IMG/VR virus record: IMGVR_UViG_3300026512_000005
Span: 32,001 to 96,000 of that record
Source of the DNA: a virus
Strand: one strand, 5' to 3'
DNA: 64,000 nt
The position numbers and the translations under genes were made by a program. Position 1 is the stretch's first letter, and each line of letters begins with the position of its first letter. Under the pieces are notes generated by a model, which had not been told where the DNA came from, ran no database searches, and was given only the letters and a program-made list of their open reading frames with translations. This document shows, one piece after another, positions 53,769-61,963 of the stretch.

Positions 53769-54254
53769 CTATAATCCTAATATTTTATTTTGTAGAAATT
53801 TAACTTTAACACGTATGGAATTAGCATAAACTTTACTACCATTATAAGCTGTCCATACTTTATTGTAATCCCCATTATAGGCTTTTACTAATGTTTGTAA
53901 TTTATTAATGACATATGTTTCTGCCACATCAGGTTGTGTCATTAAAATTGTGGCATATCTAGAACGATTCCACATGGTATCCTTGACTTTTATCTCTTTT
54001 AAATACCAATAGATATTTATGTGGTATAGTCCGTAATCAGACGACATTTCGCCAACGGTAAGTTGCCATCTACCACCTAGTGATTCGTGCCAGCATATTG
54101 CCGCTAAACTGAAACCAAGGTTATATTGTAAGCCTTTGTAATATGAACTCATGATTACTTCTCGTTCTTTATGAGAAAGTGATAACCAATCTTTCTCAAT
54201 ACTCTGTGCATGTAACGTTATAACTATTAATATAGTCATGATTAATGTTTTCAT
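53769..54254 (-). CDS. Secreted lytic transglycosylase (SLT domain)
   Basis: Signal peptide; 'AAICWHES', 'DYGLYHIN' and 'AYNG' SLT motifs. Confidence 0.8.
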   Translation of the reverse strand: MKTLIMTILIVITLHAQSIEKDWLSLSHKEREVIMSSYYKGLQYNLGFSLAAICWHESLGGRWQLTVGEMSSDYGLYHINIYWYLKEIKVKDTMWNRSRYATILMTQPDVAETYVINKLQTLVKAYNGDYNKVWTAYNGSKVYANSIRVKVKFLQNKILGL

Positions 54255-57456: not shown

Positions 57457-58269
57457 ATGAATGCACTAATCTATAGTATAAATAGAATTTTAAGAGTGAT
57501 ACCGAAGGACATTTTACATTTAGCATTTATGCGAAAAGTTGAATCGTATAATATACCCAAGATGCGAACTACTACGTTGCAACAACAAATACAAGAACTA
57601 GTATTGGATAATATTGTTCTTGTAGATATAAACCTGATAAGTGGTATGAGTCTATCTATACCTATTGATAAATGTCATATGTATGAATATGAGCATGACA
57701 GTGGTTCACGTAATATTGTTATACGAGTACCATTTAATTTAACTAATGATAAACGTATCTCGGCAGTATATAATCTTACTACAAATGGTAGTAATGTTGA
57801 TAGTAAAATATCCAAAGGTGATTACATTACTGGACAGATAGGTGAGCAACTTGCTAAAACAACACGTAGTAGCCCTGGTATGGTGTACACTGGTCTGGAA
57901 ATAATCTCTAGTAATACGATATTGGTACATGATGATATTTCTATTATATCAAATGGTTTTCTTAACGTAACTGTTGAGAATAATCGTAATCTTAGTAATT
58001 TTAAACCCAGAAGTCAAATACAATTTGCTAAGATGGTTGTTCTAGCTGCTAAAATGTTCATTTATAATACACTAATATTAGAGTTAGATAAAGGTGCATT
58101 ATATCATGGTCATGAACTAAACAGAATATCCGAAATAATTGATAAGTATGAAAGTGCTGAAGAAGAGTATAATACCTTCCTAGAAACTAAGTGGCCTAAG
58201 ATTTCGTTTGTGAATGATGATATCGCAATGTCTAGTTATATAAAACTAATAGCAGGACCGTTACAATAG
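57457..58269 (+). CDS. Conserved phiKZ-like protein (gp59-like)
   Basis: 'MNAL.YSI.RI...IP.DIL..AF', 'LA.K.FIYN' and 'Y..AEEEY..FL..KW' motifs. Confidence 0.55.
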   Translation: MNALIYSINRILRVIPKDILHLAFMRKVESYNIPKMRTTTLQQQIQELVLDNIVLVDINLISGMSLSIPIDKCHMYEYEHDSGSRNIVIRVPFNLTNDKRISAVYNLTTNGSNVDSKISKGDYITGQIGEQLAKTTRSSPGMVYTGLEIISSNTILVHDDISIISNGFLNVTVENNRNLSNFKPRSQIQFAKMVVLAAKMFIYNTLILELDKGALYHGHELNRISEIIDKYESAEEEYNTFLETKWPKISFVNDDIAMSSYIKLIAGPLQ

Positions 58270-58272
58270 TAG

Positions 58273-58300
58273 CTATATAGGAGAGTATTCTCCTATATAG
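58273..58300. terminator. Bidirectional terminator hairpin
   Basis: CTATATAGGAGA-gtat-TCTCCTATATAG followed by a T-tract. Confidence 0.75.
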
Positions 58301-58301
58301 T

Positions 58302-59660
58302 TTATTTTATTTTTGAGTTACCATATCTGAGTATTACATTAGATAAATGCTTAGCTTCATCCATGTTTAAAGCTTTCTCGTGTATTAATAAATGTTTTAG
58401 CACACCACGTGTTACTTGATCTTTGTCTTTATTAACACCGATATCATCCTGCTCTTGTCCCAACATAATTGCGTTATGTACAGTATTAGGTAATTCATTA
58501 AAATCATAATTACTATCTGTAAATACTTCATCACCATTAACATACATTGTCAAGCCCTTACCCTTCTTAAATGATAGACTATAACTAATAGTTGTATTAA
58601 GTGGAATTTGTACGCCTGTACCGGGACTAATATTGCGGTCATTAACAGTATGTGATAATTTAAGTATACCTTTATAGTTCACTAATAAAATATAGTTACC
58701 GTATGAACATCTACCGTCTACAGCCCATGACAGAATAGGTCTGAAACCTTCATTATCGTATGACTTGTACGTACCTGAAATAGTAAAATCTTCGGCATGT
58801 GATAGATTTTCTAATAGTACATATCGTTTAATACTTTCATTACTTTTAGGGAACTCTAAACCATCGTTGGTATACCTTAGTAACTCACCATCTATACCAT
58901 CTACTTTGCCAATAACATTTAACGAGTCCTGAGTAAGAGGCCAGTAATCACGTAAAGTATCATTGAAATCAATACCACTAAAATTAACCATACGTTTAAA
59001 ATTCACATTTCTACATTTAGTTACCATACTTGCGTAATAAAGGTTACGTCCTTCACTTACTGTAAGCGTCCCCTTAAATAATCGGGTACTACCTAACGTA
59101 CCTGTGAACGTATACCGCTCGTCACCATTCTTGATAGACCAGAATGAACCTACATATAGTTTACCATTAGCATAATTTATAATTGCTGATTTAGTAGAAA
59201 ATTTACCTGTTATCTGTTTAAGTTTTTGTTTAACACCATCTATAGTTATTTCGTTATTACTGACGTCGTAATTACTGAATTTGACAATTAGGTGATGTTC
59301 CTTACCATCTCTAAAGATATCAGCACTGCAACCATAGATGTCTTTAAACGTAGTATTAAAACCTATTACACCGTCTTTAAAAACAAGACTATATGCACCA
59401 TTACCAAATAGTATCTTAAATCCACCATCTGGATTAACGCTAACCTTTGTCTCTATAGTTAAATTAAAATCGCTATCGTTATCTAAATCGAATTCACCTA
59501 TTAATACCTTACCATTTATAAATTTACCTACCTTGCCAGAAGATGTTTTTTCAATCTCAACTGCACCTGTTAGTACTTCTGGTATCTTACCCTTAAATTC
59601 TAATTCTTTTATTAACTCAGCATTTACTGGTGAGAATTCCAATTTATGTTTTCTATCCAT
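58302..59660 (-). CDS. Tandem LamG/concanavalin-A-like (pentraxin-type) lectin protein
   Basis: 'DGKEHHLIV', 'IDGV', 'MYVNG' and 'LGQEQD' motifs; two beta-sandwich units. Confidence 0.7.
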   Translation of the reverse strand: MDRKHKLEFSPVNAELIKELEFKGKIPEVLTGAVEIEKTSSGKVGKFINGKVLIGEFDLDNDSDFNLTIETKVSVNPDGGFKILFGNGAYSLVFKDGVIGFNTTFKDIYGCSADIFRDGKEHHLIVKFSNYDVSNNEITIDGVKQKLKQITGKFSTKSAIINYANGKLYVGSFWSIKNGDERYTFTGTLGSTRLFKGTLTVSEGRNLYYASMVTKCRNVNFKRMVNFSGIDFNDTLRDYWPLTQDSLNVIGKVDGIDGELLRYTNDGLEFPKSNESIKRYVLLENLSHAEDFTISGTYKSYDNEGFRPILSWAVDGRCSYGNYILLVNYKGILKLSHTVNDRNISPGTGVQIPLNTTISYSLSFKKGKGLTMYVNGDEVFTDSNYDFNELPNTVHNAIMLGQEQDDIGVNKDKDQVTRGVLKHLLIHEKALNMDEAKHLSNVILRYGNSKIK

Positions 59661-59693: not shown

Positions 59694-59723
59694 GTTAACT
59701 ATGGTAGTACTACCATAGTTAAC
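59694..59723. terminator. Perfect 30-bp palindrome ending the holin-cytochrome operon
   Basis: GTTAACTATGGTAGT|ACTACCATAGTTAAC. Confidence 0.65.
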
Positions 59724-60039
59724 TCGTTATATAATATTGTTTAAGCTTTTCTATATCCATAAAGATATTTTGTTTTATATCAAGTACACCATCTATGAAC
59801 AATATAAAATCTTTTTCTTTAAGGTTTACTATAAAACTTATATCAGTAGCGGTTGGAGAAACATTAATATAAAACTCACTCATAACCAATGTACAATTAC
59901 TGTATTTGTGATTGACAATTATATTATTACATTGTTCGATAGAGTCGGTCCGTTCATCCTCAATATCATTCATACCTAGTACTAAAGAGGTAGTTGTCCT
60001 ACCTCTATTTTGTTCATCATCGGTTATAATTACAGCCAT
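59719..60039 (-). CDS. Hypothetical protein, third gene of the holin-cytochrome c operon
   Basis: 106 aa; its AAGGA SD overlaps the upstream stop codon. Confidence 0.55.
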   Translation of the reverse strand: MAVIITDDEQNRGRTTTSLVLGMNDIEDERTDSIEQCNNIIVNHKYSNCTLVMSEFYINVSPTATDISFIVNLKEKDFILFIDGVLDIKQNIFMDIEKLKQYYITS

Positions 60040-60052
60040 GTTATTAAATTCC

Positions 60053-60550
60053 TTACTTCAATGTTTTCCAGATCTTACCTAGCGTATAGTTATCAATAGT
60101 TTCTTCTGGGATAGGAGGCATCATAATACCATTCTTAGTACGACCACCCTTTCTTACATATGCCTTAAATTTTTCTACATCAGTGAATATTGAACCTAGG
60201 TCACTTATCATCATATCTGGGGTATTATGACACGTCATACATACTGTACCATTTAACACACCAACACTCTTTTTATACTCATCAAAACTTTCTAGTACGA
60301 AATCTAATTTACTTTCTACTACATTATTCCGTTCAGCTATTTTTTGTACTGGAATATATGTAAGTATAGATATTATAAATATCAGTAGGATTATGTATAT
60401 ATTAAATTTTTGTAGCGGTTGGTCTGATAATACTCGTTGTTCCATAACATAATCATATATATCATCTATCTTTTGTACATATATAGGAATGAGTTCCTGA
60501 TGTACTTCACCCATATCCTCTTCTATAGTTGATGTTTCACCTTTCTTCAT
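60053..60550 (-). CDS. Membrane-anchored monoheme c-type cytochrome
   Basis: One TM helix (aa ~50-67), CMTCH heme motif (60227-60241) and distal 'GIMMPP' Met ligand with class I spacing. Confidence 0.75.
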   Translation of the reverse strand: MKKGETSTIEEDMGEVHQELIPIYVQKIDDIYDYVMEQRVLSDQPLQKFNIYIILLIFIISILTYIPVQKIAERNNVVESKLDFVLESFDEYKKSVGVLNGTVCMTCHNTPDMMISDLGSIFTDVEKFKAYVRKGGRTKNGIMMPPIPEETIDNYTLGKIWKTLK

Positions 60551-60556
60551 AATAGG

Positions 60557-60931
60557 TTATCCTTTCTTGTTTTTATTTATCCCTAGATCTTCTTTACTCA
60601 TTTCTTCTACAGTTTTAACAACCTTAGCCTGTAACATACTGAATACTTCACCACTTGCAGTTGCTACTAAACAGCTTATAAAAATAACTAAATTAATATC
60701 ATTAATATATTTTAAATAATCAAGTAGTAAGTAAGTACCTATACCCACAAAGCCACCTATTAGCATATTCACAAAGAAATAAACTCGTTCATAACTCCAG
60801 TTTATTTCACCATTATTATTGCGTGCGATTATCTTCTTGTTATTTAACAACTTCCACGATCTACTCATGATCGCAACTGCCCCAGCCAATAAGTAAATTA
60901 ATACATATAATAGGTAATCAAATTTGTCCAT
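60557..60931 (-). CDS. Holin-like small membrane protein (3 TM)
   Basis: 124 aa; three hydrophobic segments, 'GGFVG' and a highly charged C-terminus. Confidence 0.6.
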   Translation of the reverse strand: MDKFDYLLYVLIYLLAGAVAIMSRSWKLLNNKKIIARNNNGEINWSYERVYFFVNMLIGGFVGIGTYLLLDYLKYINDINLVIFISCLVATASGEVFSMLQAKVVKTVEEMSKEDLGINKNKKG

Positions 60932-61085
60932 ACTTTTTATTTAAAGATTATAGTTTATACAAACATATGTCTTCATCTCCCTGTCTTTTATTTTTCCTAT
61001 ATATTTTATAAAAGGTAATCTATTATTTATATAGTTCAATAAAAAAGAAAAAAAGTACTTCGGTATAGGTGAACAGACTTATTGT

Positions 61086-61502
61086 CTATTCACTTATATG
61101 TTCTTTTGTACGTATCTTGATGTAAACATCCTTTCCGGACAGCCACGGTAAGTCGTACCTCATAGTATATATAATATTTTGTACTACAATACCTTCTACA
61201 CCTATACACCTTCCCTTTTCAGCTAGTGGTACCATTAACTTAATGCGAACACTTTGATACTTCTTAAGCTTATTCTGTGGTATAATAACATACCCGATAG
61301 GTAAAGTTATAATATAGTATCGATATTTATATTTAGATGTACCATTATTAATATCTTCTAATAATTCTATAAAATCATCTTCTTCCTCTTTAGAATAATC
61401 CTTTCCTAGAACATCTTCTACAGTGAAACTATAAAACATCCTAGGTACGAACCCTTTAATTATTAATAGATTACTTCTATACTTAATTTGTCTTTCCATC
61501 AA
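61086..61502 (-). CDS. Hypothetical protein
   Basis: 138-aa ORF. Confidence 0.5.
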   Translation of the reverse strand: MMERQIKYRSNLLIIKGFVPRMFYSFTVEDVLGKDYSKEEEDDFIELLEDINNGTSKYKYRYYIITLPIGYVIIPQNKLKKYQSVRIKLMVPLAEKGRCIGVEGIVVQNIIYTMRYDLPWLSGKDVYIKIRTKEHISE

Positions 61503-61963
61503 TTATCCTTCAATTGCTGCTCACCCATGAATTTTGCGAACATCTCTATAGTGTATTCATAACTACGTTTATGTGCCATGAGTACTACGTTAGTTGTATC
61601 CTCAGGGATTTCTGTTAACCCTGCATAACCACACTGGCTGTATTTTTTACTGCCATAATCTTTACATATAATCGGACGATCTGCATATACACTACATTTG
61701 TTGTCTTTGTAAAAGACACACTTCTTACTAATGTCTATCGCCTGACCCTTGGGGGATAGTCTAAATGTATCACCTTTTCCAGGGTTATGCTGTTTAGTTA
61801 TATGTTTAAACGAATACTTCGCTGACAGTCTTTTAATGTCATCCTTCGTAAAAATAACATCCTGACTACAGCACTCACCACCACATTCATCGCATGGTAA
61901 CCTACCTGTAATCTCCTCTTGACGCAAAAAATTCATGAACTCACTATTGAGCATCTCATCCAT
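61499..61963 (-). CDS. YkgJ-family (CxxCxxCC) Zn/Fe-S cluster protein
   Basis: CDECGGECC...CVFY...CSVYADRPIICKDY. Confidence 0.8.
   Translation of the reverse strand: MDEMLNSEFMNFLRQEEITGRLPCDECGGECCSQDVIFTKDDIKRLSAKYSFKHITKQHNPGKGDTFRLSPKGQAIDISKKCVFYKDNKCSVYADRPIICKDYGSKKYSQCGYAGLTEIPEDTTNVVLMAHKRSYEYTIEMFAKFMGEQQLKDN

Follow-up and report, generated by a model that had tools for sequence, protein, structure and literature searches.

What is a membrane-tethered c-type cytochrome doing in the genome of a phage, directly behind a small membrane protein that has the shape of a holin? The question arises from a 64-kb stretch of viral DNA, here called the window, which comprises bases 32001-96000 of IMG/VR record IMGVR_UViG_3300026512_000005 (115,990 bases, judged ~40% complete). 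The gene unit at issue lies entirely on the minus strand; coordinates are positions within the window unless a locus is named. It encodes a 124-amino acid protein with three transmembrane (TM) helices, hereafter the 3-TM protein, followed by a 165-amino acid protein with the marks of a monohaem cytochrome c. Phage lysis timing is thought to be set by holin concentration and membrane potential and to be tuned by protein antiholins, and the literature that we searched describes no lysis-cassette component that bears a redox cofactor. The initial annotation of the window had proposed that the cytochrome may tie lysis timing to periplasmic redox state, O2 or respiration, or else be an auxiliary electron carrier, and redox-sensing control of lysis is a plausible role for the pair. 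The reading that we favour, and to which we give an even chance, is broader: the two genes would form a single accessory module of phage lysis cassettes, coupled in translation and passed on horizontally.

The gene pair in lysis cassettes of related phages

One metagenome scan produced ten related loci (designated by L numbers), and the gene-context counts given here rest on these loci and the window; distant members known only as proteins (P0008-P0023) stand outside them. In 9/9 loci in which the upstream side is visible, the cytochrome gene is immediately preceded by the 3-TM gene. The pair is seen in the window, L002, L003, L004, L006, L007, L008, and L010; the 3-TM copy of L005 is truncated at its 5' end, and L009 starts at a contig end, with its first 112 nucleotides (nt) encoding the C-terminus of the 3-TM protein. 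The adjacency remarked on in the initial annotation is thus a recurrent one. In the relatives, the two reading frames overlap by 11-29 nt, whereas in the window they are separated by a gap of 6 nt (60551-60556), with the AAGGA Shine-Dalgarno sequence of the cytochrome gene sitting within the 3' end of the 3-TM gene. Because this arrangement recurs in every such locus, and because the CxxCH and Met-Pro motifs of the cytochrome are invariant at low sequence identity (see below), neither the pair nor its motifs can be put down to chance.

An endolysin gene lies immediately upstream of the pair in 7/7 non-jumbo loci with that side visible, and in each of the seven the endolysin stop codon falls within 1 nt of, or overlaps, the start of the 3-TM gene. 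The endolysin is of the GH108+PG_binding_3 type (Pfam 5e-26; phrog_315 2e-52) in L002, L003, L004, L006, L007, and L010, and of the M15 type (phrog_894 1.5e-22) in L008. Given such consistent adjacency to two types of endolysin, together with the tight coupling, the pair may well have a late role in infection, either in lysis itself or at the envelope; we rate the chances for and against this as about equal. The same adjacency argues against a membrane function outside lysis, for example in superinfection exclusion, counter-defence or the remodelling of the envelope, which in one version would have the CxxCH motif bind a non-haem ligand. A role of this sort would suit a narrow family that is seen in metagenomes only, and a module that moves between unrelated phages and lies, in the jumbo phage, within an accessory island of genes without a PHROG match. 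However, the protein shows every part of a cytochrome c signature, down to the distal Met-Pro and the fold, which is hard to explain without haem, and we regard a function outside lysis as improbable.

To see how far the pair has travelled, the nature of its carriers must be considered. The window encodes a PhiKZ-type major capsid protein (Pfam 5.9e-80), split subunits of a multisubunit RNA polymerase, a divergent family B DNA polymerase (3.9e-170), a chimallin-like nuclear shell protein, and a PhiKZ vertex protein, on DNA of ~31% GC that contains zero tRNA genes. Among cultured phages, identity to its DNA polymerase reaches only ~32%, and a megablast search with 7 kb of the window returned zero matches among the cultured phages of INPHARED. 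Thus, judged by its phiKZ-type core genes and their divergence, the source is a deep-branching, uncultured, nucleus-forming phiKZ-like jumbo phage. L009 shares capsid and other core genes with it at 31-36% identity and is therefore, on the same kind of evidence, a second, distant phiKZ-like phage. When the open reading frames (ORFs) of the loci were compared by blastp with the whole phage record, the pair was the only thing common to the jumbo phage and the small-phage loci.

The pair behaves as a mobile insertion and has entered two distant phiKZ-like jumbo phages. In L003 and L010, the pair is followed by a GTA_holin_3TM-like holin (phrog_3427 2e-7) and an integrase, and a similar small GTA_holin_3TM-like protein precedes the endolysin of L008. 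Bases 1-589 of L009 are 93.7% identical at the nucleotide level to L006, which derives from a co-occurring phage, and the similarity ends at the cytochrome stop codon. The stretch right after the cytochrome gene (L009:600-904) opens with a 29-amino acid ORF that matches the beginning of the GTA-type holin of L010 and L003 with 77% identity over 26 residues. On the strength of this near identity and the holin remnant, part of a lysis cassette appears to have been carried over into jumbo phage L009, where the pair was kept intact and the holin decayed. A 66-amino acid ORF with two TM helices follows the remnant, and together they look like a decayed or frameshifted holin brought along with the module. 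The two genes have largely moved together, as their pairwise identities correlate (r = 0.84 over 28 pairs, which are not independent); L008 is nevertheless a mosaic, with a 3-TM protein nearest to the L002 group and a cytochrome nearest to the L006 group, and recombination between the two genes must therefore also occur. The small phages are partly temperate, those of the L003/L010 type being among the temperate ones.

Relatives beyond these loci are scarce. No relative of the cytochrome, the 3-TM protein, P0022 or P0010 was found by tblastn among cultured phages (INPHARED, 50,697 records), and IMG/VR, scanned among others with P0006, P0011, P0012 and P0022, yielded nothing beyond the window's own record and L012, which is the same contig as L010. 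Among GTDB species genomes, two pattern-based scans returned zero relatives and hence no prophage of a named host. In the ESM Atlas, 12 viral clusters of ~150 amino acids at 0.91-0.92 and one viral Cytochrome_CBB3 cluster appear, which we treat as unverified leads only.

Further rearrangements are visible around the pair. In L008, in which the M15 endolysin fronts the pair, a 67-amino acid fragment of a GH108 endolysin (L008:5905-6108) lies downstream of an RTX-repeat gene, as though the endolysin had been swapped around a constant 3-TM/cytochrome pair. Upstream of the truncated 3-TM gene of L005, of which 75 amino acids remain, a tandemly repeated coding-like stretch (L005:1-400) contains the peptide LVGLANWWVWRTGGFGE twice; it may be either the scar of a rearrangement or an artefact of assembly. 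Proteins with RTX calcium-binding nonapeptide repeats recur on either side of the endolysin/3-TM/cytochrome block (L002:1781-2677, L007:1418-2911, L008:4981-5895 with HemolysinCabind 2.6e-16, and L006:8319-9191) and might be tail-fibre-like.

The cytochrome-like protein and its membrane partner

The 165-amino acid protein belongs to a family of ~25 homologue clusters, every one metagenomic; alignments were made of 15 and 9 members, and features were counted on 21. One hit, P0016 (448 amino acids, with saposin-like repeats), was spurious and was dropped. The architecture described in the initial annotation is seen in full: an acidic N-terminus (aa 1-48, net charge ~-6), one TM helix that is the strongest hydrophobic segment (aa 50-68), a helical stalk of ~32 residues (aa 69-99), and a C-terminal domain (aa 100-165) with the CMTCH...MPP motifs. 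The protein contains only two cysteines, both within CMTCH. The CxxCH motif is present in 21/21 family members, and its two cysteines and histidine are invariant in both alignments, so that its conservation, a point left for checking in the initial annotation, is clear. Residues C104, C107, H108, F128, R133, M144, P145, and L157 are invariant across the family at 23-57% identity. A Met-Pro follows CxxCH by 34-40 residues in 21/21 members and is the sole Met-Pro downstream of the motif. Equally regular are the single TM helix (21/21 members) and the 52-57 residues from its start to CxxCH (20/21), and the N-terminal helix carries a conserved motif, IPxYVxKID.

Profile and structure comparisons agree with these motifs. 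Pfam Cytochrome_CBB3 (PF13442) was the top recurring match in 14/15 and 7/9 members of the two alignments, with sub-threshold matches in 21/24 members scanned. The window protein scored 13.5 bits (E 0.094) against a gathering cut-off of 27 and is thus formally outside this Pfam family, and P0022, its best-scoring relative, reached 26.7 bits (E 7.4e-6) against the same cut-off. The AlphaFold2 model (pLDDT 81.6) has a helix at aa 14-42, a single long helix at aa 45-99 that comprises the TM segment and the stalk, and a small helical globular domain at aa 100-165, in which a C-terminal helix (aa 154-164) follows Met144-Pro145. Residues 94-165 of the model align with Hydrogenophilus thermoluteolus c552 (2d0s) with a Z score of 5.7 and a root-mean-square deviation (rmsd) of 2.8 A over 69 of 79 residues at 26% identity. 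Across 2d0s, 1dii_C, 1cch, 3zox, and 1ynr, the Z scores are 5.0-5.7, modest values for a small domain, with an rmsd of 2.5-3.2 A over 61-70 residues. The leading rows of the Foldseek and VIA structure searches were class I cytochromes without exception. Sequence searches of the PDB and a structure search of BFVD were less informative: the haem domain as a single sequence gave chance-level rows only, a profile search gave only weak E-values, to the CxxCH surroundings of multihaem nitrite reductases and to one class I subunit, and the viral structure library BFVD gave zero meaningful matches.

Taken together, conserved motifs and predicted fold support the assignment of the C-terminal domain to the class I cytochromes c, and the protein is very probably a genuine haem c protein. 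The initial annotation had reached the same class from the motifs and had looked to Cytochrome_CBB3 for confirmation, which came from the predicted fold, the motifs and the family-wide sub-threshold matches but not from a score above the Pfam cut-off. By comparison with known class I domains, Met144 probably serves as a haem ligand, and we infer that the haem domain faces the periplasm, where the haem would be attached. The TM segment of the window protein is strongly hydrophobic (mean Kyte-Doolittle 2.38), although weaker in some relatives; on this account we rejected a signal-arrest-release (SAR) anchor as a general feature of the family. The initial annotation knew of no haem c lysis regulator, and we likewise found neither a haem-bearing lysis protein nor a phage-encoded cytochrome c of this kind in the literature searched.

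An N-terminal membrane anchor followed by a helical periplasmic segment, encoded just after an endolysin, where spanins are frequently found, is also what would be expected of a protein that disrupts the outer envelope. The cytochrome-like protein could then stand in for a spanin, as an i-spanin-like factor or another that acts in the last step of lysis, where phages of Gram-negative bacteria have no Rz/Rz1, and indeed the relatives of the endolysins all come from phages of Gram-negative hosts and no canonical spanin was seen among the loci. However, 8/8 loci lack an embedded, overlapping or downstream lipobox ORF that could encode an o-spanin, the lipobox-pattern matches in these loci being only in-frame internal starts within the 3-TM gene. 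Moreover, a periplasmic helix of ~32 residues with a compact 66-residue haem domain is too short to reach the outer membrane, and i-spanins do not typically begin with 48 cytoplasmic residues. Lacking both a lipoprotein partner gene and a stalk of sufficient length, the pair does not fill the spanin slot that the initial annotation had offered it, and we consider such a function very improbable.

The 124-amino acid partner has three hydrophobic helices (~aa 4-22, 50-70, and 79-100), a conserved basic loop (SRxWKLLNN), a glycine-zipper-like GGxVGxG in helix 2, conserved membrane-embedded Glu95 and Cys87, and a charged C-terminal tail, QAKVVKTVEEMSKEDLGINKNKKG. The further clusters of its family (Table 1) are found on the same kinds of contig as those of the cytochrome. 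In build it resembles holins in general, which are small membrane proteins that have one or more TM helices and end in a charged tail, and it shares with class I holins (lambda S105, with three TM helices in the N-out/C-in orientation) the three helices, the basic loop (here presumably cytoplasmic), the charged C-terminus, and, in the relatives, the place after the endolysin. The 3-TM protein is, accordingly, "holin-like" by shape and context only: the initial annotation's use of the term is upheld by the three helices and by the endolysin adjacency of the relatives, but not by membership in a Pfam or PHROG holin family. We also rejected a CcdA/DsbD-like or haem-handling (WWD) role, as the protein is without a conserved His, a Trp-rich motif and a PCxxP motif.

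Lysis control weighed against electron transport

How might the two proteins act together? One specific form of the preferred lysis-associated reading, which we put forward only tentatively, is that the pair is a redox-gated holin regulator. It could then be seen, with no greater assurance, as a haem-based lysis clock that tells a holin-type protein about electron flow in host respiration, the O2 level or the capacity for haem maturation, and so delays or triggers the lethal lesion. The TM anchor would place the haem domain in the periplasm, where the Ccm or CcsBA system of the host would attach the haem, and the 3-TM protein would be a holin or a holin-modulating membrane protein. Because the latter exposes almost nothing to the periplasm, contact between the two would have to run through the TM segment and the cytoplasmic helix; the cytochrome would thus act on its partner via its TM helix and the conserved IPxYVxKID helix, with the haem domain held at a constant distance from the membrane and open to redox partners of the host. 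The redox state or haem loading of the domain would set when the membrane lesion forms, making the protein an antiholin-like or trigger-like timer tied to respiration. Complex prediction for the two proteins gave run scores of 0.38, 0.01, and 0.00, which we counted neither for nor against binding.

A number of observations weigh against placing the pair in lysis. The linkage to lysis drawn in the initial annotation holds for the non-jumbo relatives but not for the window, in which no endolysin lies near the pair; nor was an endolysin found anywhere in the 116-kb record, itself ~40% complete, by search for GH108, M15, Phage_lysozyme, and PG_binding_1, with SLT giving two sub-threshold matches only. 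The 3-TM protein matches no Pfam holin family, its best match to holin PHROGs has an E-value of 0.41 in 1 of 8 members, and hhalign finds it unrelated to the GTA-type holins of the relatives (probability <1%). Such a GTA-type holin flanks the pair as a separate gene in three relatives (L003, L010, and L008). Of the deposited phages, MW202665.1 has the most similar endolysin (48.8% identity); there, the gene that directly follows the lysozyme carries a holin annotation and shows homology to the GTA-type holin of L010 (37% identity, E 8e-15). Compared with this layout, the pair in L003 and L010 appears inserted between the endolysin and the holin; since the MW202665.1 holin follows the lysozyme directly, the pair does not look like "the" holin, is dispensable for the basic cassette and could be a moron placed at a late site of high expression. 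As for the cytochrome, Lys and Arg on the two flanks of its TM helix number 61 versus 60, so that charge favours neither membrane orientation, and no cytochrome c maturation genes were found in the phage record. Class I His/Met cytochromes are, furthermore, usually electron carriers rather than sensors.

These points lead to the main rival, in which the cytochrome is an auxiliary electron carrier, or moron: a tethered cytochrome c of the c_y or membrane-bound c552 type that feeds the host respiratory chain and thereby sustains the energy supply in infection or benefits the lysogen. The lysis cassette would then be no more than a strongly expressed insertion hot spot, and the 3-TM protein a small membrane partner or an unrelated passenger. 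The apparent insertion between the endolysin and the endolysin's own holin fits this proposal, as does the survival of the pair, intact, in jumbo phages without a nearby endolysin while the L009 holin decays. The integrase close by in L003 and L010 makes for a typical moron neighbourhood, and a TM anchor, a linker and a class I His/Met domain make up the architecture of known tethered carriers. On the other hand, the two genes always travel as a unit, with frames overlapping or coupled and joined tightly to the endolysin stop, and neither the loci nor the phage record contain any other respiratory or haem gene. An IPxYVxKID cytoplasmic helix and a rigid stalk of fixed length are likewise not features of a flexible-linker carrier. 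All in all, we judge a carrier role to be rather unlikely, though it is the strongest competitor of the lysis-associated reading.

Comparison with known proteins brings out both sides of this argument. With the small class I cytochromes of the c8/c551/c552 type, the window protein shares CxxCH, a distal Met-Pro ~40 residues on, N- and C-terminal helices, and a domain of ~70 residues; it differs in its TM anchor, rigid stalk, and acidic cytoplasmic helix, and in being phage-encoded, with relatives in lysis cassettes and no respiratory neighbours. Rhodobacter cytochrome c_y and the membrane-bound c552 of Paracoccus, which shuttle electrons from bc1 to the oxidases with a haem domain facing the periplasm, resemble it further in the N-terminal TM anchor, the linker, and the single class I haem domain. 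However, their linkers are flexible and rich in Ala and Pro and their genes are chromosomal and in a respiratory context, whereas the window protein combines a helical, constant-length stalk with a 48-residue cytoplasmic extension and an obligate 3-TM partner gene; homology to them is shown for the haem domain at most. Covalent haem c on a tethered periplasmic domain, as predicted here, is also found in the haem c sensors Desulfovibrio DcrA, Geobacter GSU0582/GSU0935, and Tll0287-like proteins, in which it serves to signal redox state or ligands. These have PAS-like folds in which the distal ligand is often weak or missing, in contrast to the class I fold and conserved Met of the window protein, and Tll0287 matches in the Pfam scan of the family were at chance level only (E 0.04).

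Among lysis proteins, the T4 antiholin RI, P2 LysA, and P1 LydB are likewise small anchored proteins encoded beside a holin or endolysin, and the cytochrome would have a periplasmic domain like that of RI if its topology is as proposed above. By analogy with RI, LysA, and LydB, the pair may possibly help to set the time of lysis. There is no sequence or fold relation to RI, however, and the window cytochrome matched no antiholin family in the Pfam and PHROG scans and nothing in cultured phages. RI binds the large periplasmic domain of the holin T, whereas the 3-TM partner offers almost no periplasmic surface, and no antiholin is known to carry haem. The resemblance of the 3-TM protein to holins has a similar limit: no profile relation exists to GTA_holin_3TM (PF11351) or other holin families, and a PF11351-like holin is present separately in related cassettes.

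If the regulatory role is correct, the pair would be the first lysis regulator to bear a redox cofactor, portable and exchanged among phage lineages, and phage lysis may involve haem or redox chemistry in a way so far undescribed. A pair wedged between endolysin and holin also makes it testable whether phages of respiring bacteria that live in redox gradients sense host respiration before lysis. Should the protein be an electron carrier instead, a phage-borne tethered cytochrome c would still be an unusual auxiliary gene. It would also give a first hint on the host physiology of this divergent nucleus-forming phage, as the host would have to be able to mature c-type cytochromes; a low-GC Gram-negative with CcsBA or Ccm would be expected.

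The gene unit and its surroundings in the source phage

Every element of the layout given in the initial annotation (the 3-TM ORF, the 6-nt gap, the 165-amino acid protein, a 106-amino acid ORF, and a palindromic terminator) was found in its place (Table 1). The last ORF matches nothing in Pfam or PHROG and has zero counterparts among the related loci; by sequence comparison, it lies outside the conserved module. Terminator-like sites in the region number 5, versus 1.0 +/- 1.0 in shuffled sequence. A scan for sigma-70 promoters gave a count no higher than in shuffles, and phiKZ-like phages transcribe with RNA polymerases of their own.

Table 1. Features of the cytochrome gene unit, in window coordinates.
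Feature	Positions	Strand	Remarks
3-TM protein gene	60557..60931	-	124 aa; ORF call; 12 further clusters at 43-59% identity
Cytochrome c-like gene	60053..60550	-	165 aa; membrane-anchored, monohaem type
CMTCH haem c attachment motif	60227..60241	-	aa 104-108, read from sequence
Met144-Pro-Pro, candidate sixth (distal) haem ligand	60113..60121	-	aa 144-146; followed by C-terminal helix ending IWKxL
106-aa ORF, last in unit	59719..60039	-	starts 13 nt past cytochrome stop
Intrinsic-terminator-like hairpin	59694..59723	-	13-bp stem, 4-nt loop, T-rich tail; overlaps stop codon of 106-aa ORF
AT-rich gap 5' of 3-TM gene	60932..61085	-	154 nt; possible phage promoter region

Several genes elsewhere in the window deserve mention. 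A 161-amino acid protein adjoining the chimallin gene (53769-54254, minus strand) matches phrog_600 (3e-19), a family of unknown function, and gives a sub-threshold match to the SLT lytic transglycosylases (13.8 bits, E 0.003), the sole faint muralytic signal within the 116-kb record. Just downstream of the terminator of the unit, a 452-amino acid protein (58302-59660, minus strand) ends in a concanavalin-like lectin domain (Laminin_G_3 3.6e-10, Pentaxin 1.4e-5); lying inside a block of genes without a PHROG match, it is possibly a carbohydrate-binding or adhesin-type accessory. Between this gene and the convergent DUF7484 gene (57457-58269, plus strand) is a terminator-like palindrome with a 14-bp stem (58271-58302, plus strand), which could act as a bidirectional terminator. 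Finally, less than 1 kb from the pair, the window encodes a CxxCxxCC putative zinc- or iron-chelating protein (61499-61963, minus strand; PF03692 6.9e-11). Its counterpart in L009 (L009:1214-1714) is 34% identical and also lies within 1 kb of the pair, albeit in a different gene order, so that the presence of a PF03692 protein near the pair in both phiKZ-like phages could reflect either shared jumbo-phage ancestry or a functional metal/redox link.

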